Shown here piece by piece: positions 1-18,800 of a stretch of 64,000 nt of DNA. Source of the DNA: Pseudomonadota bacterium. Lineage in GTDB: Bacteria; Pseudomonadota; Alphaproteobacteria; Rickettsiales; UBA8987. The position numbers were made by a program, and so were the translations under genes. Below the pieces are notes generated by a model, which was not told where the DNA came from, searched no databases, and saw only the letters and a program-made list of their open reading frames with translations. The stretch lies in assembly GCA_048498735.1 (NCBI GenBank), contig JBEHXK010000004.1:2283-66282 (forward strand). Direction: 5' to 3'. Within the stretch, counting starts at the first letter, position 1, and each line of letters begins with the position of its first letter.

Positions 1-3000
1 ATCAGTTTTGCCATCAGCGCCTATGCTTATATTCCTGCCCACCAGAAGAACGTGCTGTTCGGTTGTACAGAAATCTTCACGGCAACGAGTTGTGGTTGGA
101 TTATCTACCGGGCAATTACACCAGAAACCAAACGGTTCTGTTTCACCGTATTTACTGATATCACCAGATGAAGGAGGTTTGTTCAACCAGAATTCCTGCT
201 GCTGCACCGAACCACTTGCATAATTCCTGAAGCTTTCAAGTGCATAATCCGGATCACCATCTGTAACGAGAGTGGTCATACCACCAGATACATCTATAGA
301 TCCTAAACCACCAAGATCACCACTGAACTGATCAAGGCCTTTATCAATTTTATTTGCCAGATCAGCTGCACCCACTGCTTTTGCTGCCGTAGAAAGTGCG
401 GTTTGTGCTGCACCCAAGAATTTGTCTATAGTTGTAAGCGTGCTGTTTATTGTATTTAGAGTGGATGCTATGGTATTAACAGCTGAAGCCGCGGTATTTA
501 ATGTATCATCAATGCTATCTAATGTTGGCTTGAATTCAGCAGATGCATTCATGCTTATAGAACCTGTTACGCCGTTCTTCATATTCGTACATACGTTTTG
601 CGCCTGAGTGAAGAATTTAGTTACCCCTGTTGCCGTTGATATTTCGCTACCGATCGCACTAGATAGGTCATCACCTGCTTTCATGGAATCATCAAATGCA
701 TCCATATACTCGCTTGCGCCGAAAACACTTGCCAGAACATCAGCAACAGTCTTGATAGTTTTAAAGCCAAATTTAACTTTTGCCTTACCTATGTTGAAGG
801 ATATAGAAATTCCTCGGATAGCTTGAAGCGTGCCGTTAAGCTTATCATCAACCGGTTTAACTATATTGGTCTGTAATTTATTTACCGTAGCTTTTGCTGT
901 TGCCAACGATGAATTAACAGTCGGGCCGGTTTCACCAGGTTCATCAACGCGACCATCATAATTGTCATCAATATGATTGCTTGCAAAAGGAGGATCACCT
1001 GCTGCAGGCTGGGTCATAGGTTTATCACAAAAATCAGACTGCGCATAACCACTTGCACTCGCCTTACTTAGTTGATCTACGGTCCCCCTGAGCATTTTTG
1101 AAACCCTTTGCAGATTTTGTATATCTGATTGCAGTGATTCCGTTTTTTCATCAGCTTCATCTACAGTGCCATCACCATCGTTATCCACACCATCTTTATT
1201 GGCAGGTTGTCCGCTGGAATTTGTTGAACTGCCTGAAACAAGGTTATTTATATCTGTAATATATTTACGAACGGTGGTTTCCAGTTTTTTGATATCGCCC
1301 AGAGTATTTGCTATATCTGTAAGGGTTTTCTTGTAATCTGCGGTTGTACCGCCGCCGCTGGTGCTGCTGCTTGCAGTTACGCTGTTGCTGGAACTATAAG
1401 ATGTATCATCCGATGTAGCATTTGCCGGGGTTATAGTTTTTGTTACTGTAAAGTTGGAACCGCTCTGGGTTCCTATTATCACCGCTTCAAATTCTTTTTC
1501 ACGACCATAGAACGTATCACCACGAGTAGCATAATCTATTGCCCTGATAGCGTTATCTACAGCTTTTTCTACAGATGTATATTTAGTTACAGTGTATTTT
1601 TTAGAGCTGCCTGTTCCAGTGCTTGATATTTTGTAACACCCGGTTTTCCTACATGCACCTGTATAGAAATTCTCTTTAGGATCAACATTGCTTCCAGGAA
1701 CTTTAGCAAGCGCATTATCTACGGTGCTTGCCATTGAACCAACTAAAGATAAATCACATTCAATTGGATCATCCTGGCCATAAACAGCAAGCGCTACGTT
1801 CACCACTGCCTTAGCTGCTTCGCACAGAGCATTTTGTTTATTGCGGGCCAATGCATCAACGTTCTCGTGGCATGGACTCTTATACCAATCAGGATTACCA
1901 TTTGTCTTATCGTAAGATACAGAACCAGGAACATCAATCACAGGGCCGGTGCAATCAAGGAAAGATTTCAGGAATTCATAATCAAAGCGAGGAAGCCTCC
2001 ATGCAATTATTTTCGGATCAGTTGTTCCGCGCTTATAAAGATCCAGCCAACCAGCGCAACGTGACTTGCTTGCAGGATTATCTTCACCCAGCAACCATTT
2101 ACCAAGCATTGTGTTAGGATCGTCAACCCAAGTTGAACGCACACCGAATGGACCACATGTATCGCGTATCCTCTCAACCCTATATAGCTCAAGTTTAGGT
2201 TTTGCAGCCGCAAGATCAACCGGATCGGACTTTGTTATTATAGTGTCCATATTATTGACCCAGAAGTGAGACATGATAGGCGTTTTGTTGAAATTAAAAT
2301 CATTATCAACTTTAATATCATTTCCTACAGTGTCCTTACCGGCAACGTTACCCTTAAAGAACGGATTATATGGAACTTCGAATTCACACCAGAAAGCTTT
2401 ATTTAAACCAACTGCAATAGACCATGCGTGTGGTAACCACTCAAAATAAGGTGTTTCATTATCACGAACTTTGAAACCACCGAATTCTTTATTGTCTGTA
2501 TATGTTATGCTGCCGCCTGAAGATGAGGATGAATTGGATGGCGGTGGTGTAAGGATCGGCATTTTACCGATATTGATATCATCATAAACATGCCATGCAT
2601 CACGAACCTGGTTTGCATTAGGAGAATCTTTGTCTATCTGATAATATTTCCTGCCATCAGCATCTACTATCAGATCATTATTGCCAGAACTATCGGCATT
2701 TTTCTTATTATACACTTCATCTATAACACTTGTAGGTACGTTTGGTATGTCTGGCCATCCTTGTATACCAAACAAGTTAGGAACCAGACCGATGGTTTTT
2801 GTTATATTTATAGGCTGATTGTGAATACATGAACTTGCAGGCCATGAATGATCAACCCATTCTTTGCTGGCTGTAAGGTTACTCTCATTCAACACCATGA
2901 CACCAAGTTTTGGACCCGTATCAACTGTGCGAGGAATTTCCTCATAAGCTTCATATGTACCATCACCGCCAAAATAAGCATAATCAACAGCAGCATCTGC

Positions 3001-6000
3001 ATTTTGACTGTCTGTCAGGCCATTTGTTTCCCAAGTTTTTTCTGCCATATGCTGGCTCAACATCGCCTTGCCACCCGCACGACCTATCCAGTTATCTTCT
3101 ATATAAACCGGGCTGCCTGAAGCACCGACCGTACCGAGTTCATATTTTTCCCAGTTCTGTTTTATATACATGCCAGAATCGGTATTAAAGCCATATGCAT
3201 AAACAGGCAGGCTAGGAATTGGAGTTATTAGAGATATAATCGGCGCATTAATATCTGTAGTCATCCAGTGCTTATATTTATAATTTGCACCACCAGCATT
3301 TAACGTATTGTTAATCACATCAAATGCAGCTGACACTACTGCCGAACCAAGTTTTGCTACACCACCACCACTCGCCATTGAATCTGAAAGGCTATTAACG
3401 ATCTTAGCACCAACGTTAGGATTACATATACCCCAAGGATTACTATCACTGACACCAAATGGATTTATAACATCCTTCCAGAAATGAGGTGGAACAACCG
3501 AACGGCAATTCCTTCTTTCCATATTCACCTGGTAACCAAGACCGTTCGTAACAGTTGATACAACATCAGAAACGTTTGTAGGATCTATAACAGGTGAGTA
3601 AAGATCAGATGTCAGTGGGATTGTATCACCGGTTATAGTTTTGGCCGCATCTGCAAGGGTTTGGAGCTGCTGGTTATTAAATGGACTACCATCACCAATA
3701 CGTGTCCCGTTCGTTAGATCACGCTGCTCTGACATCACAGAAAGTGCGCTGAAACTCAGGAAGTTATAATAGTCAAATATCTCAGGCCTGTAACCTCTTC
3801 TTCTTCTAAAACCATAATCGTTCATGTTATTCAGATTGTCGCTTAATGCACTATCAATTGCTTCCAACCCTTGGCCAACAAGATTTTTATTGTTGACGCT
3901 GGATGATTCCAAACGTTCAGGATCACTGCCAGGAAGTGAAGCAGGAGCATTCCATGATGTAAAGGCACCCACAACATTTGGCAGCGTACCACCGACCAGA
4001 TTCAGCTTTTGAGAATCAGGCGCATTAAGAACATTTTTGCGGTAGTTATTGTTCTTATCCTGCATTTTATAGAAATAATAAAGCATGGTCGCTTTGAAGG
4101 CATTACGCCCCTCCAATGCATTTTCCATACCGTAATTATCTGATGTATCGTAATATGCGACCCACTGGCACATGCTTGAATCCGGAGTTACGGCACCAAC
4201 AGTATTCCTTATAACTTTTTGGTTCGTATCAAGAACTATCGATCCCCTATCGCCTTCAAATGCCCATTGCTCAATGAACAATCTCAAGCACTGCTGCATC
4301 TTGGCTTTACGTCCCTGGTTCGATTCCACCGAAAGCACGCGAGGATCAAAGGTCTGAGGTTTTGCTCCATCCTTAGCATCAGGCGCATAAATATTATATG
4401 GATTTATAGAATAATCATTACGGCTTATTACTTTATCACGATAACCATACTCTTCCAGGCTCTGCTGGTTATGAGTAGTTGTATCACCTGATTTTGACTG
4501 CTGATCATAAACAACTCTTTCAGCGTAAGGAGTGAAACTCGGTCTTCTGTAATCCGTCGGTGTATAAATATTATTGCGGCCGAATATATCTTTCTGATTC
4601 ACCGCCGGAGTTCCAGAAGGTATCACACCTTTATACGCAAGCGGCAACCAGTGCTCCTCAGGATCAAGATCAAGAACATATGGTTTTGAAGCACTTTTTT
4701 CCCAACAATATGTATTATAGTTAAATACATATCTGTTATTGATATAGTTCTGAGTTATAGCAACCGGCACCCCGGCAATGTTGGTGGTTTGATATTCACG
4801 ATTCATGTAATAACCGCAGTAATCATCCATTTCTGCTACAGTATCATTAGCCAGGCATACAGGCAGGGAACCGCTCTGGATCCTGGCATCATCAGATGGC
4901 AATTTTACTTTCTGCATCGCTTTTACCTTTGCAGCAGGATCGCCAAGATTAACACCAGGAGAACCTGAGCTGGAACTTGATCCAGTAGAACTTGACGAAG
5001 TGGAAGTTGTTACTGAAACCATAGCGGCATTATGCTGAATCACGCAAAGAGGATGGCGCATCAGAAGCCTGTCATTAGGAACAAGATAGGTTGTGGTTTC
5101 AGCTGTAGGATCAGCAGCGGTATTGTCAGGATCAGTTCTCCCTTCAACTTTACCAGAAACCGCATCACCGGCACCGATAACTTCTTCATCCATTGGCAGG
5201 TTGGTATCATTTACAGGATTTTGCACAGAAACGATTGTTTTTGTGTATTGGCTTAAGAAACATTCATCTGCCATGGCTGCCGCTGCTGCCGCTGCTCCAG
5301 TTACTCCGGTAAGTTCGTCCAGGTCAACCACCCTTCTGGTAGGCTGATAGAATTTTATCGGCGTAGCATCTTTCCATTGACAGTTATACATAACTGACTT
5401 GGCATTATTGCTCGCATCAAACGCAAGCGGAGTACCGGCTTTATTGACAACCGGCTTGCTGAACTTGCCGGCAGGCATTAACACGAATCTCTCTTCAGGA
5501 TCATAACAACCGGTGCGGGATTCATATATATCTTCACTTGATGATCTTGCAGAAGTATCAAACGGCACGGCCTTATTGTTATTCACATAATGATTGCCAT
5601 CGGTAATATTAGGCAGATTGGAGTCTTGGGCAGGCAGATGCGTGTAGAAGAATTTACCGCGACCGCAATTACCTTTGTACGGGTTATTCTCACTGCTAAT
5701 TATATTCTGATAAGTTGTATCGATCGAATTATAAGCAGAACCTTCCTGCGCATTTGTGTTAGCAGTTTTACCGCCATCACTTGTTGAGTAATTCGGGAAT
5801 TTATCAAAATCAGGTTTGCCACTTGGGATCAACAAGCAATCTGGAACAACCATGCTCAATAAACCGCTTACACCATTCTGTATAACGCTACCAACATTAA
5901 TGTTAATACCATTAGAGCCGGTTATGGAGCTGGTTCCAAGCATCGGCTCACAACCTTGAGATTTAATTATATTATCTTTATTTCCGGTGATACCATCACG

Positions 6001-6633
6001 GGAAACTTTTACGCGGCGATCTTCATAACAATCTTCACATTTTTTCGTATTACCATCATGAACCGTACAGCCATCTTCCTGCATGATAGCAAATTTTATA
6101 CCCCATATATTCCTGGTACATGAATAATCGCCTGCTGAACAACCTTTATCGCAAGAACTTTGGCCTGGCGCATACGGATCTGTTCTTGCATCGGCATTTC
6201 TGAAGTAGCATTTGTCGATCATTTTATTTTCGTCCTTGAAAATACCAGTTCCAAGGAATCCATTCAGATCGATACCCTCCTTATATGCCACTATATACTG
6301 ACATTCGCCTTTTAACTGCGCCTTAACCTGCTGAAACGAAACTCTACAGTCTTCCTGCAATCTTGCTTTTATGCCTTTTGCAAGATTACCAGCAAAACAT
6401 AATAAACCATGCTTATCGGCCTGCGATATCGTGTTACAGATACTTGCATCAACATCTTTTGCGTAATAGGTATGAGCGCGGGTATCACCGCATGTCGCAT
6501 TCGGGTCCCAGCTTATTTCAAGAGGGGGAAGCCAGTTAACGCTTGGGTCAAATTGAGCGCTTTGCGCACCGGAAGAAACTATAGCAGCAAGGGCTATGAT
6601 AGGTATTTGGAGGATTTTCCAGTATTTCTTCAT
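1..6633 (-). CDS. Giant secreted protein of unknown family; N-terminal 2,211 codons only (the gene runs off the left edge of the window)
   Basis: Absent from the supplied ORF track, presumably because it has no in-window stop. Hand translation of the reverse strand gives ATG at 6633-6631 and then an unbroken frame to position 1 (6633 = 3 x 2211). Plus-strand triplets in register 1,4,7... never read tta/cta/tca. The N-terminus MKKYWKILQIPIIALAAIVSSGAQSA is a Sec signal peptide. Only 60-92 aa shadow ORFs lie on the + strand across the same 6.6 kb. Confidence 0.85.
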   Translation of the reverse strand, partial: MKKYWKILQIPIIALAAIVSSGAQSAQFDPSVNWLPPLEISWDPNATCGDTRAHTYYAKDVDASICNTISQADKHGLLCFAGNLAKGIKARLQEDCRVSFQQVKAQLKGECQYIVAYKEGIDLNGFLGTGIFKDENKMIDKCYFRNADARTDPYAPGQSSCDKGCSAGDYSCTRNIWGIKFAIMQEDGCTVHDGNTKKCEDCYEDRRVKVSRDGITGNKDNIIKSQGCEPMLGTSSITGSNGININVGSVIQNGVSGLLSMVVPDCLLIPSGKPDFDKFPNYSTSDGGKTANTNAQEGSAYNSIDTTYQNIISSENNPYKGNCGRGKFFYTHLPAQDSNLPNITDGNHYVNNNKAVPFDTSARSSSEDIYESRTGCYDPEERFVLMPAGKFSKPVVNKAGTPLAFDASNNAKSVMYNCQWKDATPIKFYQPTRRVVDLDELTGVTGAAAAAAAMADECFLSQYTKTIVSVQNPVNDTNLPMDEEVIGAGDAVSGKVEGRTDPDNTAADPTAETTTYLVPNDRLLMRHPLCVIQHNAAMVSVTTSTSSSSTGSSSSSGSPGVNLGDPAAKVKAMQKVKLPSDDARIQSGSLPVCLANDTVAEMDDYCGYYMNREYQTTNIAGVPVAITQNYINNRYVFNYNTYCWEKSASKPYVLDLDPEEHWLPLAYKGVIPSGTPAVNQKDIFGRNNIYTPTDYRRPSFTPYAERVVYDQQSKSGDTTTHNQQSLEEYGYRDKVISRNDYSINPYNIYAPDAKDGAKPQTFDPRVLSVESNQGRKAKMQQCLRLFIEQWAFEGDRGSIVLDTNQKVIRNTVGAVTPDSSMCQWVAYYDTSDNYGMENALEGRNAFKATMLYYFYKMQDKNNNYRKNVLNAPDSQKLNLVGGTLPNVVGAFTSWNAPASLPGSDPERLESSSVNNKNLVGQGLEAIDSALSDNLNNMNDYGFRRRRGYRPEIFDYYNFLSFSALSVMSEQRDLTNGTRIGDGSPFNNQQLQTLADAAKTITGDTIPLTSDLYSPVIDPTNVSDVVSTVTNGLGYQVNMERRNCRSVVPPHFWKDVINPFGVSDSNPWGICNPNVGAKIVNSLSDSMASGGGVAKLGSAVVSAAFDVINNTLNAGGANYKYKHWMTTDINAPIISLITPIPSLPVYAYGFNTDSGMYIKQNWEKYELGTVGASGSPVYIEDNWIGRAGGKAMLSQHMAEKTWETNGLTDSQNADAAVDYAYFGGDGTYEAYEEIPRTVDTGPKLGVMVLNESNLTASKEWVDHSWPASSCIHNQPINITKTIGLVPNLFGIQGWPDIPNVPTSVIDEVYNKKNADSSGNNDLIVDADGRKYYQIDKDSPNANQVRDAWHVYDDINIGKMPILTPPPSNSSSSSGGSITYTDNKEFGGFKVRDNETPYFEWLPHAWSIAVGLNKAFWCEFEVPYNPFFKGNVAGKDTVGNDIKVDNDFNFNKTPIMSHFWVNNMDTIITKSDPVDLAAAKPKLELYRVERIRDTCGPFGVRSTWVDDPNTMLGKWLLGEDNPASKSRCAGWLDLYKRGTTDPKIIAWRLPRFDYEFLKSFLDCTGPVIDVPGSVSYDKTNGNPDWYKSPCHENVDALARNKQNALCEAAKAVVNVALAVYGQDDPIECDLSLVGSMASTVDNALAKVPGSNVDPKENFYTGACRKTGCYKISSTGTGSSKKYTVTKYTSVEKAVDNAIRAIDYATRGDTFYGREKEFEAVIIGTQSGSNFTVTKTITPANATSDDTSYSSSNSVTASSSTSGGGTTADYKKTLTDIANTLGDIKKLETTVRKYITDINNLVSGSSTNSSGQPANKDGVDNDGDGTVDEADEKTESLQSDIQNLQRVSKMLRGTVDQLSKASASGYAQSDFCDKPMTQPAAGDPPFASNHIDDNYDGRVDEPGETGPTVNSSLATAKATVNKLQTNIVKPVDDKLNGTLQAIRGISISFNIGKAKVKFGFKTIKTVADVLASVFGASEYMDAFDDSMKAGDDLSSAIGSEISTATGVTKFFTQAQNVCTNMKNGVTGSISMNASAEFKPTLDSIDDTLNTAASAVNTIASTLNTINSTLTTIDKFLGAAQTALSTAAKAVGAADLANKIDKGLDQFSGDLGGLGSIDVSGGMTTLVTDGDPDYALESFRNYASGSVQQQEFWLNKPPSSGDISKYGETEPFGFWCNCPVDNPTTTRCREDFCTTEQHVLLVGRNISIGADGKTD

Positions 6634-6814
6634 CTGCCGCCAGTATCTCTAATATAGCAATTATACAATATTTTAATAAAAAATTAACTAAAAATTCATA
6701 AAATATGCTAAAATATTCTTCTTTTTGATCGACATATACTTATATATACTCATCACTGTCTAGACAATTAAATTTTGCTTAAAATCGCTTTATTACGGGA
6801 TTTTTATTATAAAC

Positions 6815-7600
6815 ATGTCAGAAAGCCGTAAATTCAATAATGATGACTATCGCGAACTTGCCGAAAAGATAGAATCCGGCCAATATTTCCAGGAAGCACA
6901 GGACTGGTATCTTAAGAAATATATGTACCAGTTCATTGAGCGGTCATATCTGATAATGCTGCTTCTGGCATTACTTATACTGGGCATGTTCCTGCGCAGT
7001 TATTATCATAGCATTTTACCTATCAGGAAAAGCTTGCCTATCCAGGTTAATATTTCTTCTGCGGCGGAATATTCAACGCGCATAACCTATCTTGGCAACG
7101 GCCGTAAAGATTTTGATGTGAATGATGTTTATGTGAATTATTTTGCAGGACGTTTTGTTGAAGCGATTGAAAGCTATGATTACCGGGATGATTTCAAGAA
7201 ACTGCGTATCAACAAAACCCTTATACATGAACTGGCTTCAAGTGATATATATGATTACTACATGGATAAAATATCGATTCGTAACGCAGATAGCGTGATT
7301 TTAAAATATCGCAAAAAAATATACCGCGTTATTAACGTTGATAAATCGAAAACTGAAATAGCCCTGATCCCTAAGGACAAGAACGATATCTATAATGACA
7401 AGAATGATGATATGCGCAAATATCAGGCAACAGTGAATTTCACCGCAACTGAATATGACCGCAACGGTATAGGAACTAAATCAAACTGGCAGGCTAAGTT
7501 TATCTTGTCTTTCCAGACCATAAAATATAATTTCAAGGAAAAGGATTTTTCACCGCTGAATTTTAAAGTTTTGAGCTATGAGAGTAAAAGGATCGATTAA
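6815..7600 (+). CDS. virB8: VirB8-like type IV secretion inner-membrane protein
   Basis: 261 aa. The cytoplasmic N-terminus carries YFQEAQDW (cf. VirB8 YF.EA.SWE). One TM helix (YLIMLLLALLILGMFL) is followed by a periplasmic domain with RFVEAIESYDY and C-terminal SPLNFKVLSYE (cf. Brucella VirB8 NPLGFNVTSYR). It overlaps the next gene by 23 nt. Confidence 0.7.
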   Translation: MSESRKFNNDDYRELAEKIESGQYFQEAQDWYLKKYMYQFIERSYLIMLLLALLILGMFLRSYYHSILPIRKSLPIQVNISSAAEYSTRITYLGNGRKDFDVNDVYVNYFAGRFVEAIESYDYRDDFKKLRINKTLIHELASSDIYDYYMDKISIRNADSVILKYRKKIYRVINVDKSKTEIALIPKDKNDIYNDKNDDMRKYQATVNFTATEYDRNGIGTKSNWQAKFILSFQTIKYNFKEKDFSPLNFKVLSYESKRID

Positions 7601-8429
7601 GTTTTTAGCACTGCTGGGGATTTTACTTCTGGCAAATAATTCATATGCAGCAAATGCCGTGAAAAGCATGCCTATAAACGGTGACAGAAGATTGCGCATG
7701 TGGAATTACCAGCCTAATACCATGTATGAATATACCGGTGTTACAAAAGCACCTTCCCGCATAGAACTTGACCCGACTGAAGAGATAGCAAGCATAACAA
7801 TGGGTGATCCGACCGACTGGCAGATAAACCCGGTAGGATCTACTCTTTTCCTGAAGCCAGTTGCAGCGAATGCCAATACGAACATGACAATCATCACCAA
7901 TAAACGCACATATTATTTTGAGATGTATTCAAAAGAAGGCACTGGCATGGATGACCCGGATATGGCCTTACTGACGAAATTCAATTATGTTGATGCCGAA
8001 GGTGCCAATGGCGATTCAAACTCAAGCGACTTTATCGACCTTTCCTCTTCTGCAACTACAGGCGCACCTGATTATGTTCCTGACCCATTGCAAAGCACAA
8101 AAGGTCTGAACTTAGGATATAGCATGAGCGGCTCTAAGGATATAGCACCACTCGAGGCTTTTGATGATGGCGAATTCACCTATTTCAAATTCAAAAATAT
8201 TAATGCTGATTATCCTGCGATCTTCCAGGTTCTGCCCGATGGAAACGAAGCTATTGTGAATTACCGAGTTTCAAGAAATGGTTATGTGGTGATAGAGATG
8301 GTCACCAGCCAATATACGCTTCGCTTCGGCAGTCAGATGGCTTGTATATTCAATGATTCCAAGCCTCTTCCTTATGTTAGCAGGAAAATAAAGAAGAGCA
8401 ATGAGGCCTCTTCCTACGGCATATATTAA
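7578..8429 (+). CDS. virB9: VirB9/TrbG/CagX-family type IV secretion outer-membrane core protein
   Basis: 283 aa. Signal peptide MRVKGSIKFLALLGILLLANNSYAANA. The N-domain shows YEYTGV...ITMGDPTDWQINPVGSTLFLKPV...TNMTIITNKRTYYFEM. The C-domain shows PLEAFDDGEFTYFKF...PAIFQVLPDGNEAIVNYRV..GYVVIE....YTLRFG. Both are classic VirB9 signatures. Confidence 0.8.
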   Translation: MRVKGSIKFLALLGILLLANNSYAANAVKSMPINGDRRLRMWNYQPNTMYEYTGVTKAPSRIELDPTEEIASITMGDPTDWQINPVGSTLFLKPVAANANTNMTIITNKRTYYFEMYSKEGTGMDDPDMALLTKFNYVDAEGANGDSNSSDFIDLSSSATTGAPDYVPDPLQSTKGLNLGYSMSGSKDIAPLEAFDDGEFTYFKFKNINADYPAIFQVLPDGNEAIVNYRVSRNGYVVIEMVTSQYTLRFGSQMACIFNDSKPLPYVSRKIKKSNEASSYGIY

Positions 8430-8491
8430 TAACTTCCGATATTGAACTTCCTCTTGAATTCCAAGCAATTCTGGGATAAATACAGAGCCCT

Positions 8492-10282
8492 ATGAATAAA
8501 AAGAATAAAGATCTTCCATTTAAAAATCCTGAGAACGGATCGGAACTGGTTCTTAACACTTTATATGAAGAAGGTGTTGAGGTTATTTTCGGCTATCCAG
8601 GTGGCGCAGTTCTTCCTATATATGATGCGATTTTCAAACAGGATAAAATCCGCCATATTCTTGTTCGTCACGAACAAGGTGCTGCACATGCCGCAGAAGG
8701 TTATGCACGCTCGACCGGTAAGGTTGGCGTTCTGCTTGTAACATCAGGCCCCGGTGCAACAAATACCATCACTGGTTTGACTGATGCATTGCTTGATTCA
8801 ATTCCATTAGTTTGCATCACCGGACAGGTTGCAACTCACCTGATCGGCTCCGATGCCTTCCAGGAAGCTGACACTGTGGGCATTACGATGTCATGCACGA
8901 AACATAATTACCTGGTTAAGGAATCAGGCAAGCTTGAGAATATTATCCGCGAAGCGTTCTATGTGGCTAAAAGCGGCCGCCCAGGCCCGGTTGTAATCGA
9001 CCTGCCAAAAGATATACAATTGAAACCGGCTGTTCCATCAGTTGATCATAAATTAAAAGCGCATGATTCTTACAAGCCTTCAACCGATGCTAACGCGGAA
9101 GAAGTTAAAAAGGCCGTAAAACTTATGGCTGAAGCTAAGCAACCGGTTTTCTATACTGGCGGCGGCTTGATAAACTCGGGCGAAGAAGCTTGCGAGCTTC
9201 TGGTTGAGTTCGTAAAACTTACTGGTTACCCGATCACCAGCACATTGATGGGCCTTGGCGCTTACCCGACCAATGATCCGCAATTCCTGAAAATGCTCGG
9301 CATGCACGGCTCACTTGAAGCCAACATGGCGATGGCTAAATGCGACGTGATGATAAATATCGGCGCACGTTTTGATGATCGTATCACCGGCAGGAAAGAT
9401 GCCTTCTCGGTTGGTTCGAAAAAGATCCATGTTGATATTGATGCTTCGTCGATAAACAAAAACATTAAAGTTGATATCCAACTTGTTGGTGATGCAAAAC
9501 ACGTATTGAAGCAGCTTATCGCCGAATGGAAAAAACAGAATTACAAGGCTGATGAGCTGGCACTTAAAAAATGGTGGAAGCAAATTGATGAATGGCGCGA
9601 AGCAAAATCTTTTGCATATCGCAATTCAGAGAAGGCCCCTCGCCCGCAATATATTCTTGATACATTAAACCGCCTGCTGCAGAAGGAAAAAGATTATTTC
9701 GTGACAACGGATGTTGGCCAACACCAAATGTGGGCAGCGCAATATATTGATTTCAAAAAACCAAATCGCTGGCTGACTTCTGGCGGCCTTGGAACAATGG
9801 GATATGGCCTGCCTGCGGCTCTGGGCGCACAAGTTGCGAACCCGGATAAAACGGTTGTTTGCGTTTCCGGTGAAGCTTCAATCCAGATGAATATCCAGGA
9901 ACTTTCAACCATAGTTCAATATCGCCTGCCGGTAAAATTGCTGATTTTGAATAACGGATATATGGGCATGGTTCGCCAGTGGCAGGAACTTTTCCACGGC
10001 GACAGAAAATCTGAGAGCTATATGGAAGCTTTGCCAGATTTCGTAAAACTTGCAGAAGCTTATGGCATTAAAGGCATCAGGTGTGAAAAACCTGCCGATG
10101 TTGAATCTGCTCTGAAAAAGATGCTGGATTATGATGGCCCGGTTGTTATGGACATGCTGACCGATAAGGCTGAAAATGTTTATCCGATGATTCCGGCTGG
10201 TGCTGCGCATTACGAGATCAAACTTAACCCTGATTCACCTGATATCAAGGTGGATAAGGCTGAGGCTGCAAAGCAGGTTTAG
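8492..10282 (+). CDS. ilvB: Acetolactate synthase (AHAS) large catalytic subunit
   Basis: 596 aa. Motifs [40 protein letters not shown] and the ThDP-binding [16 protein letters not shown]...[12 protein letters not shown]. Confidence 0.9.
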
Positions 10283-10298
10283 ACCCTTAAAGCTTAAT

Positions 10299-10314
10299 TG
10301 GCATAAGAGTTGCT
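10299..10314 (+). promoter_or_regulatory. Candidate sigma-54 (-24/-12) promoter for the 10346 gene
   Basis: TGGCAT-AAGAG-TTGCT compared with the consensus TGGCAC-N5-TTGCW. GG and GC are separated by exactly 10 nt. The site is intergenic, about 32 nt upstream of the ATG at 10346. Confidence 0.55.
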
Positions 10315-10319
10315 AATAT

Positions 10320-10341
10320 AATCCTTAAAACCTTAAGGATT
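10320..10341 (+). promoter_or_regulatory. Perfect 9-bp stem / 4-nt loop hairpin covering the Shine-Dalgarno of the 10346 gene
   Basis: AATCCTTAA-aacc-TTAAGGATT. The 3' arm contains AAGGA (10335-10339), 6 nt upstream of the ATG. No T-tract follows, so it is not a classical terminator for ilvB. Confidence 0.5.
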
Positions 10342-10345
10342 AGTC

Positions 10346-10984
10346 ATGAGCATCAATAATTTAACCTCTTCTTACTATAATTTGAGCCAGCAGCTTGCGT
10401 CACAAAGCAGCTCTAGCGGAACAAGCAGTTCATCCGATATTGATTCGCTCATTAAGCAGCTTGAAGGTGCAAGCACCTCAACTTCATCAGACAGCAATGA
10501 TGCTTTCAGCCTGAATTTAAGCCAAAGCGCACAAGATCTGCTTGATTCCGGATCTACAAACAGCACAAGCAGCTCCTCATCAACTGCAAGTTATACACTT
10601 ACAAAAGCGCAGCAGAAACAGCTTGATGCGATTCTTGCTAAATATAAGGATGCACCTTTTACACAAGATACATATAACCAGATCCAGGATGAGCTTCAAA
10701 AGGCTGGACTTGCACCAGATCAACTAGCTACTGAAGATAAAATAAAAAGCTTTAATACCACTCAGGTATTTATCGATGCGCTAAATGGCAAGGATGATTC
10801 CTCTTCATCTTCAACATCATCTGATGGCAGCACTTCAAGCAGTGACAGCACTGATTCTGATACAAAATCATCTAACTATATGCAGCAAGTGGTTTCGCAA
10901 TGGAAAAGCATTTCAACTACAGCCAATGCTGATAACTCTTCCACTGATCAAACATCAGGAAGCGGCATTTCAATTGATGCTTAA
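10346..10984 (+). CDS. Ser/Thr/Asp-rich low-complexity protein, no signal peptide or TM segment
   Basis: 212 aa. Ser runs include SSSSGTSSSS, STSSSSST and DDSSSSSTSSDGSTSSSDSTDSD. A less biased central block reads YTLTKAQQKQLDAILAKYKDAPFTQDTYNQIQDELQKAGL. Good SD. The N- and C-termini resemble those of the convergent neighbour. Confidence 0.7.
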   Translation: MSINNLTSSYYNLSQQLASQSSSSGTSSSSDIDSLIKQLEGASTSTSSDSNDAFSLNLSQSAQDLLDSGSTNSTSSSSSTASYTLTKAQQKQLDAILAKYKDAPFTQDTYNQIQDELQKAGLAPDQLATEDKIKSFNTTQVFIDALNGKDDSSSSSTSSDGSTSSSDSTDSDTKSSNYMQQVVSQWKSISTTANADNSSTDQTSGSGISIDA

Positions 10985-12304: not shown

Positions 12305-12766
12305 TTGAGTATTTTTCTTTCTACATATATTAACAAAATCGATAAAAAGGGGCGCGTTTCAGTGCCTGCCGCCTATCGCACCGTTACAGCAAAAGAAAAT
12401 TTCCACGGTATAATCGCTTACCCTTCATTTGTGCATGAATGCATTGAAGCCTGCGGCATAAGCCGCATTGAAAAGATCTCGGAAGCTATCGACACTATGG
12501 ACCCATATAGCGAAGATCGTGATGCCTTTGCGGCAGCAATCTTGGGTGAAGCACAACAGCTTGGTTTTGATAATGAAGGACGCGTAACACTTTCAGAGCA
12601 ATTGATAGAAAAAGCAAAGCTGAAAGATCAGGCTATTTTTGTCGGCAAAGGCCAGACCTTTGAGATCTGGAACCCGGATAATTATAATAAATATGCACGT
12701 AATGCCCGTGATATTGCAAAACAAAATCGCGGCAAACTTAGTTTGATAGGTAAAGCGGGCAAATGA
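12305..12766 (+). CDS. mraZ: Transcriptional regulator MraZ
   Basis: 153 aa. SIFLSTYINKIDKKGRVSVPAAYR plus a second DNEGRVTLSEQL repeat. It is the first gene of the dcw block. The track start is TTG. Confidence 0.9.
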   Translation: MSIFLSTYINKIDKKGRVSVPAAYRTVTAKENFHGIIAYPSFVHECIEACGISRIEKISEAIDTMDPYSEDRDAFAAAILGEAQQLGFDNEGRVTLSEQLIEKAKLKDQAIFVGKGQTFEIWNPDNYNKYARNARDIAKQNRGKLSLIGKAGK

Positions 12767-13800
12767 GATATCTGATCAACATACAGGATTATTCCCTTGA
12801 TGAGATTTGTTATATATACGAGAAGGCTGAGACATTAAAATATTTTGCTGAAATGAACTATGAACATCACATACCAGTATTGTTAAATGAAACATTGGAA
12901 CTTCTGCAGCCAAAAGATGGGGAAGTTTATGTTGATTGCACTTTTGGTGCCGGCGGTCATACACATGCGATATTAAAAGCTGCAAATTGTAAAGTGATCT
13001 CGATCGATCGCGACCCTCATACAAAACTTCTTGCGGATAAATTTGAAGCAGAATTCGGTGATCGCTTTACGTATGTGAATGATCGATTCAGCAATATCGA
13101 CAATATTCTTGATGATCTGAAAATTGAAAAAGTTGACGGCATAATCATGGATCTTGGTTTTTCCTCCATGCAGGTTGATACGCCACGTCGCGGCTTTTCA
13201 TTCCAGGCGGAAGGCCCGCTTGATATGCGCATGAGCAGCAGCGGTATTTCAGCGGCCGACTTCATCAACAATGCGTTTGAAGAAGAGATATCAGATATAC
13301 TTTACCGTTTCGGTGATGAGAAAAAATCCCGTCCGATCGCACGTGCAATTGTCCGCGAACGTGCAAAAGAAAAAATCACTACCACCACCAGACTTGCAGA
13401 AATAATTTCCGCCGCTGCTGGAAAATATGATGATGACATCAATGCTGCGACGAGAAGTTTTCAGGCGATAAGAATTTTCATCAATGAAGAATTTGAAGAA
13501 TTAAAAACTGTGTTGCAAATAGCAAAAGATCGATTAAAAGAAAATGGTAGGTTAGTTGTAATTACGTTCCATTCCGGGGAAGATAGTATAGTGAAAGATT
13601 TCTTTAAGAAGTATTCAGGCTCTGAAAGCCGCAGTTTCTCAAGGTATTCGCCGTCTTCAGTTTTGCCGCAGAATTCCGTCGCAAATGATTTTGAATTGCT
13701 CACCTCAAAACCTATCGGGCCAAGTGATGAAGAAATTGAAAATAATATTCGTGCACGTTCAGCAAAAGTTCGTGCAGTAAAAAGACTGGCGGCATTATAA
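12763..13800 (+). CDS. rsmH: 16S rRNA (cytosine1402-N4)-methyltransferase RsmH
   Basis: Motifs HIPVLLNETLELL, DCTFGAGGH, DLGFSSMQVD and RSFQAIRIFINEE. Conserved sequence begins near aa 36, so the ATG at 12853 (MNYEHHIPVLL) is a plausible alternative start. Confidence 0.9.
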   Translation: MRYLINIQDYSLDEICYIYEKAETLKYFAEMNYEHHIPVLLNETLELLQPKDGEVYVDCTFGAGGHTHAILKAANCKVISIDRDPHTKLLADKFEAEFGDRFTYVNDRFSNIDNILDDLKIEKVDGIIMDLGFSSMQVDTPRRGFSFQAEGPLDMRMSSSGISAADFINNAFEEEISDILYRFGDEKKSRPIARAIVRERAKEKITTTTRLAEIISAAAGKYDDDINAATRSFQAIRIFINEEFEELKTVLQIAKDRLKENGRLVVITFHSGEDSIVKDFFKKYSGSESRSFSRYSPSSVLPQNSVANDFELLTSKPIGPSDEEIENNIRARSAKVRAVKRLAAL

Positions 13801-13803
13801 AAT

Positions 13804-14139
13804 ATGAAAGTCAGACTTAGCACATATATTTATATTATTTCATGCCTGGCGATGGCGTGCATGGTATATTATTTCGAAAATAAGGTGCATGAAGTTACGG
13901 AAAAGATAGCCGATGTTAATGAGAAACTATCACATTATGATAATGACCTGCGCGTTCTTGAAGCTGAATGGAGCTATCTGAATGATCCAGACAGACTTGG
14001 AAAGCTAACCGCTCAAATCCATGATGATATGAACAGTCCGATAAGGGTGCAGTTCACTAACCTGAAAGATCTTCCTACACGTGAAGTGATGTCTGCCAGC
14101 AATGCGGGCAATATAACCGCGCAGAATATAATTCCATGA
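13804..14139 (+). CDS. ftsL: Cell division protein FtsL-like (single-pass membrane protein)
   Basis: 111 aa. N-terminal TM (YIYIISCLAMACMVYYF) followed by a coiled-coil-like segment. It holds the canonical position between rsmH and ftsI and overlaps ftsI by 4 nt. Confidence 0.65.
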   Translation: MKVRLSTYIYIISCLAMACMVYYFENKVHEVTEKIADVNEKLSHYDNDLRVLEAEWSYLNDPDRLGKLTAQIHDDMNSPIRVQFTNLKDLPTREVMSASNAGNITAQNIIP

Positions 14140-15872
14140 GAAATCCGGCACGCCCAAGGCCAAGCCTGATACTTGAAGGTTCAATCGACAGGGCGATCAA
14201 ACGTGCACAAGTAAGGCTTATAATATTGGGCTGCATGATATTGATCACTTTCCTTGCGGTTGCTGGTAAAACAGTAAAGCTAACTTTCTTCTTTGAACCG
14301 GAAGCCATCAAGCGCCTGAGCTACACAAAATCAGCAATTGAGCGTGCAGAAAACCCAGTTCCGACATCAGAAAAATTCCGCAAATCAATATATGATCGTA
14401 ATGGAATTCTGATTTCCTCGAACCTTATAACCTCATCACTTTATTGCGATCCGAAAGTCATGATCGATGAGAAGAACGCCGCACATCAGCTTGCAGCGAT
14501 CTTGCCGGAACTTGATGAAAAAGACCTATATAAAAAATTTACTGATAAAACTAAAAGCTTCGTCTGGCTGAAACGCAGCCTGCACCCAAAACAGAAATAT
14601 GAGATCAATGCGCTTGGTATCCCGGGTCTGAACTTTGAAGATGAGGAAAAAAGGATCTATCCGCACGGTAATCTGTTCGCGCATGTTATAGGCATGGTTG
14701 GCCAGGATGGCCACGGCCTGAGCGGCTTGGAAAAATATCTCGATACAGTTCCAATAGATAGTTATGACAAAGTTCTGAAAAACGACAGTATAGTCACCAC
14801 ACTTGATACACGTATACAATCTATCCTTCATGATGAGGTTCAGAAAGCATTTGATAAACACCACCCTGTGAATGCCAGCGGTATTGTCATGGATGTAAAT
14901 ACCGGCGAAATTTTGGCCATGGTGAGCCTACCTGATTTTGATCCCAACCTGCCACGCAGTGTTAAGCCTTCGAATATGTTCAATATGGCAACGCTTGGTG
15001 ATTACGAGCTTGGCTCGGTATTCAAGCCATTCACTTTTGCAACCGCGCTGGATAACGACAAAATAAACGAAAAGATGATCTTCGATGCAAGCCATCCACT
15101 GCAAATCGGCAAGGCAAAGATATCAGATTATCATGCCAAGAACCGTCCGCTTTCTGTGCCAGAAATATTGATGTATTCATCTAATATTGGTACTGGCAAG
15201 ATTGCAATGGAAGTTGGCATGGATAAAATGCAGGATTATTTCCACCGCTTCCATTTCTATGACAAGCTTGATACTGAAATTCAGGAAAAATCTACCCCCA
15301 CTACACCGAAAAAATGGAGCGAAGTTGGTTTGGTTACTATGTCATTCGGCCATGGCCTTGCATTATCACCATTACATGTGGCAGCGGGTTTAAGCGCGAT
15401 CGTTAATGGTGGATATTATTATGAACCTACACTTATAAAACGTTCAAAATCTGAGCAGCTGACGCAGCCAACACGTGTTATTTCCAAGAAAACATCTGAA
15501 CGCATGCGCGTTCTATTGCGCCTGGTCGTGGCAGGTGGTTCGGGAACACATGCGAATGTGGATGGTTATCTGGTCGGTGGTAAAACTGGAACTGCAAATA
15601 AGATCGAAGGCGGAAAATATAGCGACAACCGGGTTGTCGGTTCATTCATTGGTGTGTTCCCTTATAACGACCCAAAATATCTGGTGTTTGTTGTGCTTGA
15701 TGACCCTAAAGGAACGCCTGATACGCATGGCTTCATAACCGGCGCTTGGGTTGCAGCGCCCGCGGTTGCCAATGTTATAACCCGTATGGCGCCGATAATG
15801 AAAGTTCGTCCACAACAGGATGACACCAAAGAGATATTGACTAAATTCGGCCTTGAAAACGCCTCCGATTAG
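14136..15872 (+). CDS. ftsI: Peptidoglycan D,D-transpeptidase FtsI (class B PBP)
   Basis: 578 aa. TM anchor plus SxxK (GSVFKPF), SxN (YSSNIG) and KTG (GKTGTA) motifs. Confidence 0.9.
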   Translation: MRNPARPRPSLILEGSIDRAIKRAQVRLIILGCMILITFLAVAGKTVKLTFFFEPEAIKRLSYTKSAIERAENPVPTSEKFRKSIYDRNGILISSNLITSSLYCDPKVMIDEKNAAHQLAAILPELDEKDLYKKFTDKTKSFVWLKRSLHPKQKYEINALGIPGLNFEDEEKRIYPHGNLFAHVIGMVGQDGHGLSGLEKYLDTVPIDSYDKVLKNDSIVTTLDTRIQSILHDEVQKAFDKHHPVNASGIVMDVNTGEILAMVSLPDFDPNLPRSVKPSNMFNMATLGDYELGSVFKPFTFATALDNDKINEKMIFDASHPLQIGKAKISDYHAKNRPLSVPEILMYSSNIGTGKIAMEVGMDKMQDYFHRFHFYDKLDTEIQEKSTPTTPKKWSEVGLVTMSFGHGLALSPLHVAAGLSAIVNGGYYYEPTLIKRSKSEQLTQPTRVISKKTSERMRVLLRLVVAGGSGTHANVDGYLVGGKTGTANKIEGGKYSDNRVVGSFIGVFPYNDPKYLVFVVLDDPKGTPDTHGFITGAWVAAPAVANVITRMAPIMKVRPQQDDTKEILTKFGLENASD

Positions 15873-15897
15873 CCTATATTCTTCACACTTTTAGCCA

Positions 15898-18800
15898 ATG
15901 GCACTGAAGTTCAACATAAAAAATTCCACGAGGAATTTTCTATCTGATATACCTGCAGGCAGTGAAGTTTTCCCTCTGATCGAGATGGCTGAAAATTCAC
16001 CCGGCGGGCTGGTTCACATTTGCAAAAACGATTTTTATCTTGAAAAAATCCACGACCTTTTAAGTTTTTTTGCACCACAGATTAAACTATATTCCCTGCC
16101 CGCCTGGGATACAAATCCTTATGATAAGGTTTCGCCTAATCCTGAAGTTATTTCTGAGCGCCTGAAAACCCTGGCCGATATTTCTGGAGGACTAAAGAAA
16201 TGCGAAATAGTTCTGACAACCGCAAACGCATTAATTCAAAAACTGGTTCCACTTGAGGTTATAAAAGCCTCACACCTTAATATAAAGGTAAAGCAGCAGA
16301 TAAAACGCGAAGACATTTTAAGTTTCCTGGTCAATAACAGCTATATAAACGTGGCTGCAGCGGCTGATCATGGCGAATTTGCAGTTCGCGGAAGTATAAT
16401 AGATATTTTCCCACCATCATCGGCCAACGGCATTCGTCTGGATTTTTTTGGCGATGAGATTGAAACCATCAGAACCTATGACCCGTTAACGCAGATATCA
16501 TTGAGTAATATTGATGCTTTTGAACTGATACCTGCCAGTGAAGTGCTTCTTAATAAAAAATATATAGATAGTTTTAAGGAAAATTTTCTCGGCGAATTCG
16601 GGCCTGAATCTGGCAAAGATCCGGTATTTGAAGCCGTGATGGAAGGGCGTAAATATCCCGGATTTGAAAATTATTTACCGTTATTTTATGGCAGGCTTGC
16701 GAGTATTTTTGATTATGCACCACAGGCGATTTACAGTTTTGAACATGACCTTGAACCAGTAGTGGAAGAACGCCACGCGCATATAAAAGATAGCTATAAT
16801 GCAAGGCTTTCATACGCTAAATCTGGTCGTTATGGCAATGCAGATCATTTCATCCCGCCGGAAAAATTATATATAATGGAAGAGGAATATAAAAAGCTTC
16901 TCTCTAATCGCACGGAAGTTTTTTTCAGCCATTACAACATGCCAGAATCAATCATTGCCGGCTATAAACCAATCACTTCATATTTTGCAGAAGCAAAACC
17001 ACATAACCGCTCTGCACTTGACCTTTTCCGTGATGAACTGGCCGAGAACTTCAACAAAAACAATAAAACCAAAACTATTATCGCATGCATGAGCGCAGGA
17101 AGTTCAGAGCGTATGGCATCACTGCTCACTGAGCATGAAATAAAAAATATATTGATCACCGATTATTCAAAAGAGCAGGCCCTTCTGAATCGAACCAATG
17201 TGGGTGTGGCCGTGTTAGCGCTTGAACATGGGTTTGAGGCAGAAGGCATAAAGCTGGTGAGTGAAGCTGATCTGCTGGGCGAGAAGATATATCGTCGCAA
17301 GAGCGGACGCGGTAAAAAAGCAGAAGATTTCATACGCGAGGCAGCGAACCTTTCAACCGGTGAACTGGTTGTTCATAAAGAACATGGAATTGGAAAATTC
17401 ATCGGCCTGGAAACTTTAAAGATAAATAATACGGAACATGATTTCATTCTGCTAGAATATCTGGGGGGCGATAAATTATATGTTCCGGTTGAGAATATAG
17501 AGCTGATCAGCCGTTATGGTGGTGATAGCGAACATGTTGAAGTTGATAAGCTTGGCAGCCTGCAATGGCAGGAACGCACTGCTAAAGTTAAAAAGCGCAT
17601 AAAAGTTCTGGCAGAAGAGTTGATCAAGATCGCAGCAGAACGTGAAGTTCGTGGCGGAACGGTTTTTGATTTCCAAAGCGGTGCCTATGAAGAATTTGCC
17701 AGCCGTTTTCCTTACGTTGAAACTGATGACCAGTTAGGGGCCATAGAAGATGTGATGGATGATATTGTTTCCGGCAGGCCAATGGATAGGCTGATCTGCG
17801 GTGATGTTGGCTTTGGTAAAACTGAAGTTGCCTTGCGTGCTGCATTTGCAGTGGTGCAGAACAATAATAAAGAACAGCGTGCACAAGTGGCGGTGATATG
17901 CCCAACCACCCTGCTCTGCCGCCAGCATTATAACACTTTCCTGCAGCGTTTTGAGGGAACCGGAATTGTTATAAAACAACTTTCACGCATGGTTAGCAGT
18001 GGGGATATCAAAAAATCTAAAGAAGCGATAAAGAATGGTGAGGTTGATATAGTTATTGGTACTCATGCACTGCTTGCAGCCAATATGGAATTCAAAAACC
18101 TTTCGATGATAATAATAGATGAGGAACAGCGTTTTGGTGTTGCACAGAAAGAAAAGCTCAAAAAACTACGCGCCAATACTCACGTTCTAACCCTGACGGC
18201 AACCCCTATTCCACGCACATTGCAATTGTCACTCACGGGAATACGCGATCTTTCACTTATCGCAACGCCACCGGTTGACAGGCTGGCCGTTCGCACATTT
18301 GTAATGCCTTATGATGATGTGACCATACGCGAAGCAATATTGAAAGAGCATTATCGCGGGGGAAGAACTTATTTCGTCGCACCACGCATTACCGACCTCG
18401 AAGCATTGGAAAAGCGCCTGAAGGAAAACATTCCCGAAGTTCGCATAGTTTCAGCACATGGCCGCATGAAGCCTGACGAACTGGATAAGATCATGAATGA
18501 TTTTGATGAAGGCAAGTTTGATGTGCTGCTTGCAACAACGATAGTTGAATCTGGCCTGGATGTTTCTGCCGCTAATACAATTATAATATATCGCGCTGAT
18601 ATGTTCGGCCTGGCGCAGTTATATCAATTACGTGGGCGCGTCGGCAGAAGCAAGGTTCGTGCCTATGCTTACCTGACAGTTCCACCGCGCAAGATATTAA
18701 CCAAACATGCAGAAAAACGTTTAGAAGTTATGCAGAAGCTTGATAGCCTGGGCGCCGGTTTTACACTTGCAAGTTATGATATGGATATACGCGGTTTCGG

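Follow-up and report, generated by a model that had tools for sequence, protein, structure and literature searches.

A gene for a putatively secreted giant protein recurs divergent from a detached RvhB8-II/RvhB9-I pair in environmental relatives of Rickettsiales pathogens

The rvh-type type IV secretion systems (T4SSs) are marked by duplications of RvhB4, RvhB8 and RvhB9, by multicopy RvhB6 and by the lack of VirB5 (PMC11077975). In Rickettsia, virB8a flanks virB9a on one strand and virB8b-virB9b-virB10-virB11-virD4 lies on the other, with VirB9b truncated (Gillespie, 2009; PMC2653234). The RvhB8-II paralogue is recognized by a degenerate NPXG motif, by the retention of a cytoplasmic Trp and Tyr and of the beta-4 Tyr, and by its pairing with a full-length VirB9 (Gillespie, 2015; PMC4676284). 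In Anaplasma phagocytophilum, virB8-2 and virB9-2 are detached (Al-Khedery, 2012; PMC3556328). The role of these duplicated, divergent rvh VirB8/VirB9 paralogues has been a standing question since 2009. In this work, we analyzed a 64,000-nt stretch of Rickettsiales DNA (assembly GCA_048498735.1, contig JBEHXK010000004.1, positions 2,283 to 66,282; hereafter the window), in which a virB8 paralogue and a virB9 gene face, across a short spacer, a gene for a giant cysteine-rich protein. As a vir islet, the window pair belongs to an already known kind, since detached virB8/virB9 genes are known in Anaplasma. The new part is the giant partner, a rare and uncharacterized family of secreted proteins without Pfam, PDB or fold match. 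Judged from sequence comparison, the pair and the giant are probably linked in function. The locus consists of the following features:

6815-7600, forward strand: virB8 paralogue, open reading frame (ORF) of 261 amino acids (aa)
7578-8429, forward strand: full-length virB9, ORF of 283 aa
7578-7600, forward strand: 23-nt overlap of virB8 and virB9, from the ORF coordinates
6633-1, reverse strand: 5' part of the giant gene, codons 1-2211; the frame is open and leaves the window at its left edge
6634-6814: divergent intergenic spacer, 181 bp, 23% GC
8492-10282, forward strand: ilvB, acetolactate synthase large subunit (TIGR00118, 783 bits against a cut-off of 538)

A previous sequence-only reading of this DNA had reported the ORFs, the 23-nt overlap, an AT-rich spacer of 181 bp and a giant frame of more than 2,211 codons, and the ORF coordinates and GC content agree with it on every count. 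The overlap of virB8 and virB9 is kept at the same length in four other loci (L002, L003, L009 and L017), which is consistent with translational coupling of the two genes.

The giant gene was found beside virB8-virB9 again and again. The 2,211-aa giant fragment was searched against 5.8 billion proteins, and the contigs of its homologues were looked up without reference to vir genes. Five homologues were obtained (P0001-P0005; 2,388-3,338 aa, 33-36% identity), and in five out of five the giant gene is divergent from a 261-269-aa VirB8-like gene and a CagX gene. The outer flanks of these five loci vary, being formed by ilvB, by META and ilvB, by CutA1 and a glycosyltransferase, or by ClpX. Further partner loci were obtained through VirB9 look-ups, namely L014, L017 and L018 with giants of 2,881, 2,593 and 2,716 aa, respectively, L011, in which the giant is cut by the contig end, and L020, in which it is split into ORFs of 1,760 and 1,158 aa. 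The combination of giant gene and pair is carried by the assemblies GCA_048498495.1, which is of the window species, GCA_035909535.1, GCA_964445765.1, GCA_033762595.1 and GCA_964588995.1 and by the JGI contig Ga0480394_0000001 (812 kb; sample 3300042957). A hidden Markov model (HMM) of a domain of about 250 aa that is conserved in the giant family (alignment A7) was then run on every ORF of all fetched loci. An ORF with this domain is directly divergent from virB8-virB9 in every core locus that reaches the domain. Of the metagenome VirB9 loci, 44 extend 3 kb or more upstream, and 12 of these have such a partner. Without exception, the partner is encoded on the strand opposite to the pair, at a distance of 0.7-2 kb from the virB9 start, and it is between 780 and more than 3,300 aa long. 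The number of distinct partner-bearing loci is 23, a count that includes the window and L011, where the sequence ends before the domain. These loci fall in at least three VirB9 lineages of a neighbor-joining tree, with VirB9 identity down to about 40%; the Rickettsiaceae-like VirB9 lineage and several others are without the partner. The sequence-only reading had itself named the case in which giant homologues never co-localize with vir genes, and the five homologues and the 23 loci are the opposite of it. Thus, the co-localization of the giant family with virB8-virB9 is shown to be recurrent, strictly adjacent and divergent.

The gene on the other side of the pair gives a measure of how far such adjacency can be expected by itself. 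ilvB, a housekeeping gene outside the system, is the downstream neighbor in the majority of core loci and also in several of the distant loci, and because its adjacency is so widely kept, it serves as a control for the persistence of plain synteny. The giant partner is kept where the ilvB flank has been lost (L006 and L008). Among the metagenome loci, 39 extend 3 kb or more downstream, and none of them has VirB10 or VirB11 within the fetched flanks, which reach up to 10 kb on either side; no partner-bearing locus has another vir gene within 10 kb. Two more distant relatives, L021 (2.1-Mb contig ERZ25072999 ctg321779) and L022 (GCA_964535825.1), hold a lone virB8-virB9 pair among housekeeping genes and no giant partner, with no virB10 or virB11 within 10 kb of the pair; in L021, a toxin-antitoxin/helix-turn-helix insertion lies between the pair and ilvB.

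The second ORF of the pair is a full-length VirB9 of the RvhB9-I type by its sequence similarity. PF03524 (CagX) matched it with 182.1 bits against a cut-off of 34.2, and TIGR02781 (VirB9) with 199.3 bits, slightly under the equivalog cut-off of 217.7. A profile of six VirB9 orthologues aligned end to end with TrwF of R388 (E = 4e-33; TrwF residues 4-241 of 266), the R388 structure 7o3j was among its matches, and the C-terminal domain of TraO was also aligned, over VirB9 query residues 175-259. Both the N- and the C-terminal domain are present in the window VirB9, which has a signal-peptide-like N-terminus, and Cys256 is invariant in all ten VirB9s aligned. Its C-terminus (8369-8429) is formed by a basic stretch followed by an aromatic tail, SYGIY, for which the relatives have FFG[IVL]F; this tail is missing from the VirB9 of L022 and from the Rickettsiaceae VirB9 of L041. 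The aromatic tail is similar to the C-terminal signal of outer-membrane proteins.

The first ORF is, on sequence grounds, a genuine but deviant VirB8. The sequence-only reading had called the signatures of both proteins clear, which holds for VirB9 and is too strong for VirB8: the Pfam family VirB8 (PF04335) reached 21.4 bits (E = 2.5e-4) on the window protein, under its cut-off of 23.2, and an NCBIfam scan gave no match. In a profile search against the PDB, four VirB8 structures were retrieved, the best being Bartonella 4lso (E = 1.3e-3) and the other three weak. The R. typhi RvhB8-II structure was not among the matches of this search, as would be expected because the paralogue evolves fast. 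Homology over the full length was found to pair-type VirB8s of L020 (E = 3e-35), which has a precomputed, unmarked Pfam VirB8 record (E <= 1e-5), and of L021 (E = 2e-37), which has a weak one. The assignment follows from these PDB profile matches together with the full-length homology to the Pfam-recorded L020 and L021 proteins. It is further supported by a weaker similarity to the VirB8 of L022 (E = 5e-14; unmarked Pfam record) and to the divergent-pair VirB8 of L041 (E = 9e-12; 52 bits in Pfam). The topology is bitopic, with one transmembrane helix at about aa 44-66 and a periplasmic domain; a hydrophobic segment at about aa 33-69 occurs in all five VirB8 orthologues, and that of the window, YLIMLLLALLILGMFL, was read by eye. 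The cytoplasmic N-terminus carries the motif ESG(Q/E)YFxEAxxWY, W31, Y32 and Y36 are invariant in alignment A2, and Y255 is invariant in alignment A8, so the beta-4 Tyr is kept. The NPXG dimerization motif is absent: SPLN of the window aligns with NPVG of the L041 operon VirB8, and the motif is degenerate in every pair-type VirB8 aligned (A8).

The typing of the pair was made possible by L041 (JGI Ga0335396_10000214, the same as L038), whose rvh region spans 1466-10762. One strand of it encodes a VirB8 (121 bits in Pfam), a VirB9 of 146 aa reduced to its N-terminal domain, VirB10, VirB11 and VirD4; the divergent strand encodes the weaker VirB8 and a full-length VirB9. The L041 VirB10 is 55-60% identical to VirB10 of Rickettsia and Tisiphia, which indicates that the contig comes from a Rickettsiaceae bacterium, and a VirB10 search seeded from it gave only Rickettsiaceae among the best 120 matches. 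Of the two VirB8s of L041, the window VirB8 matches the one in the divergent pair but not the one in the operon, and the identity between the window VirB9 and the full-length L041 VirB9 is 41%. Moreover, the window VirB8 has a degenerate NPXG, the retained Trp and Tyr, the beta-4 Tyr and a full-length VirB9 partner, as described for RvhB8-II. By its similarity to the L041 divergent pair, its degenerate NPXG and its retained Tyr/Trp traits, the window pair is typed as an RvhB8-II/RvhB9-I unit of an rvh-type P-type T4SS, detached from the rest. The likeness to rvh suggested by the sequence-only reading is thus borne out, both by the degenerate NPXG and by the L041 layout, which is as in Gillespie (2009).

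The window VirB9 is not in a virB operon beside virB10; its next gene is ilvB, and tblastn found no VirB10 or VirB11 in the window. Xanthomonas plasmid proteins (VirB1 to VirB6, VirB10, VirB11 and a part of VirD4) used as tblastn queries detected no other vir gene in the window, and the remaining 55 kb are without a vir gene in the Pfam scans of 30 ORFs of at least 200 aa as well. The earlier statement that no virB10, virB11, virD4, virB4 or virB6 accompanies the pair and that ilvB follows it is supported by TIGR00118, the ORF scans and tblastn alike.

The spacer between the two transcription units contains a conserved block:

6660-6693, reverse strand: conserved cis element ATTATAC-N6-8-TTAA-NN-AAAAATTAACTAAAA, identified by conservation across core lineages

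The exact 15-mer AAAAATTAACTAAAA lies at window positions 6679-6693 and is present as a single copy in the 64-kb window even when two mismatches are allowed. Each of 16 fetched loci contains it exactly once, and in nine of nine distinct core lineages it falls within the giant/virB8 spacer, inside the longer block of about 34 bp. By comparison, the virB9-ilvB spacer, taken as a control, has no k-mer of 10 or more that is common to more than two lineages. The proteins of the core loci bearing the 15-mer are only 33-65% identical, so neutral spacer DNA should be saturated at this divergence. The spacer element is thereby shown, by sequence comparison, to be under selection in the core clade. On the strand of the giant gene, the block reads TTTTAGTTAATTTTT...TATAAT, with TATAAT at 6665-6660, 27 nt upstream of the giant ATG, and the 15-mer over the -35 region. 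A simple scan of the spacer gave no strong sigma-70 consensus. From the TATAAT box and the conservation, the element is a putative promoter of the giant gene, which may include an activator site or a regulator site shared with virB8. The element as a known RNA was rejected, since there was no Rfam match.

By inspection, the N-terminus of the giant protein (MKKYWKILQIPIIALAAIVSSGAQS/AQF) resembles a Sec-type signal, and a hydropathy scan gave no transmembrane segments after it. The window fragment contains 42 Cys, and the full-length homologues contain 56-68. The stretches aa 540-561 and aa 1751-1765 are Ser-rich linkers, and acidic DxDxDG-like motifs occur twice, around aa 1815-1828 and around aa 1888-1900. 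The window fragment gave no match to a Pfam or NCBIfam family; three full-length homologues matched no Pfam family at E <= 1 except at chance level; and the giant has no diagnostic domain of the giant-exoprotein classes held in Pfam (autotransporter, two-partner secretion, RTX). The giant as VirB6, as a VirB10/CagY-like protein or as an autotransporter was rejected, for it is without transmembrane segments and without such domains. AlphaFold2 on aa 24-1200 with a six-sequence alignment reached a predicted local distance difference test (pLDDT) score of 29 and was unusable. Conservation within the family is highest over the C-terminal 900 aa or so, from FWCNCP onward; this region lies mostly beyond the window, which contains its beginning:

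1-255, reverse strand: start of the conserved C-terminal region of the giant, aa 2127-2211, with FWCNCP at aa 2170, recognized by identity to L017 and L018

This region is 59% identical to aa 1623-1699 of L017 and 70% identical to aa 1826-1868 of L018. L020 (329-9088) and L104 (1-5068) encode the giant in two separate ORFs that both have a signal-like N-terminus, and in L016 (1267-9052) it is broken into 1,495, 75 and 926 aa, where the near-identical L017 (1271-9052) has one ORF of 2,593 aa. These split genes could reflect fission, pseudogenization or assembly error. In the core clade, and confined to it, one or two secreted Cys-rich ORFs (ds1 and ds2) follow downstream of the giant gene:

L002 20019-21186; L003 18701-20755; L006 17167-18405; L017 101-1268: ds1/ds2 region

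ds1 has a DSTGGLQ motif and bears extra Cys-rich repeats in L003; ds2 is about 280 aa; the two are fused to 408-412 aa in L006 and L008. No Pfam family was found for either, and the equivalent region of the present locus lies outside the window.

The signature domain of alignment A7, of about 250 aa, is further 3' and also outside the window. A HMMER search with the conserved C-terminal region among 1.84 billion representative proteins gave 151 representatives at E <= 1e-3, so the family is rare. Its distant members share only this domain, with WxELKLYQ, LNC(I/L)C, GLDxAxxGDII, HxAYV and SExNxGKxxDxCGNTDxWG, and by alignment it is the only part conserved family-wide, in the C-terminal region. 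Within it, a Cys is invariant and a His is present in most members (motifs LNC(I/L)C and HxAYV). Pfam CHAP matched two of five members at E = 0.003, below the gathering score, and the AIM3/BBC1 family of cysteine-proteinase fold matched at E = 0.18. The SExNxGK motif resembles the ExN of CHAP domains. An AlphaFold2 model of the domain reached a pLDDT of 65.8, and Foldseek against the PDB placed IdeS/Mac-1 cysteine proteinases at the top of its list with no significance (E about 0.8, with IdeS at 0.76; TM-score 0.12). Sequence-profile searches of the PDB with the C-terminal region (A5) and the domain (A7) gave chance matches only. These signals are weak hints of a papain-like hydrolase fold. 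Ten distant members matched nothing in Pfam except for one SLT domain: P0168 (981 aa) has an SLT lytic transglycosylase domain at aa 258-365 and the family domain at aa 744-961. This SLT domain is the sole link of the giant family to a known activity.

We hypothesize that the rvh RvhB8-II/RvhB9-I pair and the giant protein are functionally linked, with the giant as a co-regulated partner of a VirB9-containing envelope complex, and we give this reading of the sequence data a probability of roughly 0.55. The VirB8 paralogue is a bitopic inner-membrane protein with a degenerate dimerization motif, and VirB9, apparently coupled to it in translation, is an outer-membrane core-complex subunit. The pair is separate from the operon virB8-I-virB9-II-virB10-virB11-virD4, which lies opposite to it in Rickettsiaceae, and in the window clade and at least two other VirB9 lineages that position is taken by the gene for a very large Cys-rich protein with a Sec-type N-terminus. 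The two transcription units would share a bidirectional control region with a selected element of 15-40 bp, from which we infer their co-regulation. The giant would be exported by Sec, fold oxidatively in the periplasm and act at or through the VirB9-containing envelope complex, either as an accessory or surface component, which would be of note since rvh systems are without a VirB5 adhesin, or as a periplasm-routed cargo, by analogy with pertussis toxin for Ptl. We assume that the rest of the machine (B3, B4, B6, B10, B11 and D4) has its genes at other sites of the genome. The narrower proposal, that the giant family is a hitherto unrecognized, lineage-restricted rvh T4SS component or a dedicated cargo specific to the RvhB8-II/RvhB9-I pair, is tentative, and on the present comparisons we consider it rather doubtful.

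Several findings weigh against a functional link. The giant carries a Sec signal but none of the known features for recognition by a T4SS, and it is without a significant fold match (models of aa 24-1200 and of the A7 domain reached pLDDT values of 29 and 66, respectively). Among the related pairs with enough upstream sequence, 32 of 44 (about 70%) are without the partner, so the pair works without the giant as a neighbor. The ilvB adjacency is also kept in most core loci, so slow rearrangement alone can preserve neighbors. In addition, the 13-kb contig of L104, which bears the distant member P0150, ends inside the split giant, before any virB8 is reached. The main alternative is a purely historical explanation, in which an ordinary RvhB8-II/RvhB9-I islet had an unrelated secreted adhesin or toxin gene land beside it, where it stayed through slow rearrangement. 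The near-equal conservation of ilvB on the other side, the large share of pairs without the partner and the restriction of ds1 and ds2 to the core clade fit this explanation, and no biochemical link of the giant and the pair is known. However, plain synteny does not readily account for a partner that persists where the ilvB flank is lost in L006 and L008, that is always immediately adjacent and divergent, and that is found again in three or more VirB9 lineages, at VirB9 identities of about 40%, despite a size from 780 to over 3,300 aa and one conserved domain, nor for a spacer element under selection. We therefore regard historical synteny as a possible but somewhat unlikely explanation.

The sequence-only reading had raised a duplicated scaffold dedicated to the giant. 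In a form close to this idea, the VirB8-like protein and VirB9 would be co-opted as a self-contained module that exports or anchors the giant without a complete T4SS. This would agree with the lack of any other vir gene within 10 kb of the partner loci and within 55 kb in the window, and with the conserved aromatic C-terminal tail of VirB9. On the other hand, the outer-membrane pore in solved core complexes is formed by VirB10 and not by VirB9, the pair is orthologous to the pair inside the complete rvh locus of Rickettsiaceae, and most related pairs are without the partner. To our knowledge, VirB8 and VirB9 alone are unable to form a secretion channel (R388 and pKM101 core complexes). Since the pair looks like a standard rvh component rather than an additional copy, and such a pair makes no channel by itself, the dedicated scaffold is unlikely, and the self-contained module is very improbable. 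The giant could also be a cell-wall remodeling factor for machine assembly, analogous to VirB1, with its domain as a papain-like (CHAP/NlpC-P60-like) peptidoglycan peptidase. The CHAP matches in two of five members, the AIM3/BBC1 fold, the IdeS/Mac-1 proteinases leading the Foldseek list, the invariant Cys, the His of most members, the CHAP-like ExN and the SLT domain in one distant member all point in this direction, but every one of these signals is below significance (Foldseek E = 0.8 and TM-score 0.12, CHAP under its gathering score, no PDB sequence match), and a Cys-rich protein of 3,000 aa is far larger than any known VirB1 analogue. This role is improbable, though less so than the self-contained module.

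The other genes of the window are of a different kind. Between 14 and 64 kb, 30 further ORFs of at least 200 aa were scanned and proved to be housekeeping genes or without a Pfam family. To the right of the pair lie genes for FtsI, Mfd, an OmpA-like protein, GshA, RpoN, GpsA, PurK and SerA, and further housekeeping genes for GlnE, GlmM, ArgG, FtsY, TonB/ExbB, TamA/TamB and a TolC-like protein. The host genome is metabolically rich (ilvB, argG, serA, purK, rpoN), with about 40% GC. In the window, ilvB has no ilvH behind it, and the ORF that comes next (212 aa, 10346-10984) matches no family; ilvB is followed by ilvH and ilvC in L018 and L020. At 12305-19407, mfd (15898-19407) comes immediately after a run of mraZ, rsmH, a small ORF and ftsI, in the place where murE usually stands in the cluster of division and cell-wall genes. 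The cluster thus appears to be broken at the window mfd.

Exactly the RvhB8-II/RvhB9-I pair is now found to have a conserved genomic partner, and this in environmental relatives with a richer metabolism than that of the classical pathogens. Together with the selected spacer element, the partner makes the question of the paralogues testable by co-expression, interaction and localization. If the giant is an rvh component or cargo, this would be the first functional clue to the retention of a deviant VirB8 and a full-length VirB9 as a separate unit, and the giant would be a candidate for the extracellular or adhesive part that is missing from the VirB5-less rvh systems. If the link is merely historical, the locus is one more split rvh islet, and an ordinary one.

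Among known systems, the Ptl system exports pertussis toxin, a Sec-exported, disulfide-bonded periplasmic cargo that leaves via a VirB-type machine. It offers a possible analogy for the giant as cargo, with no sequence relation. CagY of H. pylori is a VirB10 homologue whose gene lies beside cagX/VirB9. Anaplasma VirB6-4 has a length of more than 4,000 aa (PMC7648143). CagY and VirB6-4 share with the window giant the encoding of a very large protein adjoining T4SS channel genes, whereas the giant lacks transmembrane segments and any VirB10/TrbI or VirB6 domain, and is Cys-rich with a Sec-type N-terminus; none of the searches run gave homology of the giant to CagY or VirB6-4. In Anaplasma phagocytophilum, VirB8 and VirB9 paralogues are likewise encoded outside the vir clusters, at conserved chromosomal positions (PMC3556328). 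The closest likeness is to rvhB8a-rvhB9a of Rickettsia, in which a deviant VirB8 is also followed by a full-length VirB9 and the pair is divergent from its neighbor, on the chromosome among housekeeping genes. Unlike in Rickettsia, the window pair has no further vir gene within 55 kb and the genome is metabolically rich, and where the divergent neighbor in Rickettsia is rvhB7-rvhB8b-rvhB9b-rvhB10-rvhB11-rvhD4, the window pair faces the gene for a giant, putatively secreted protein.

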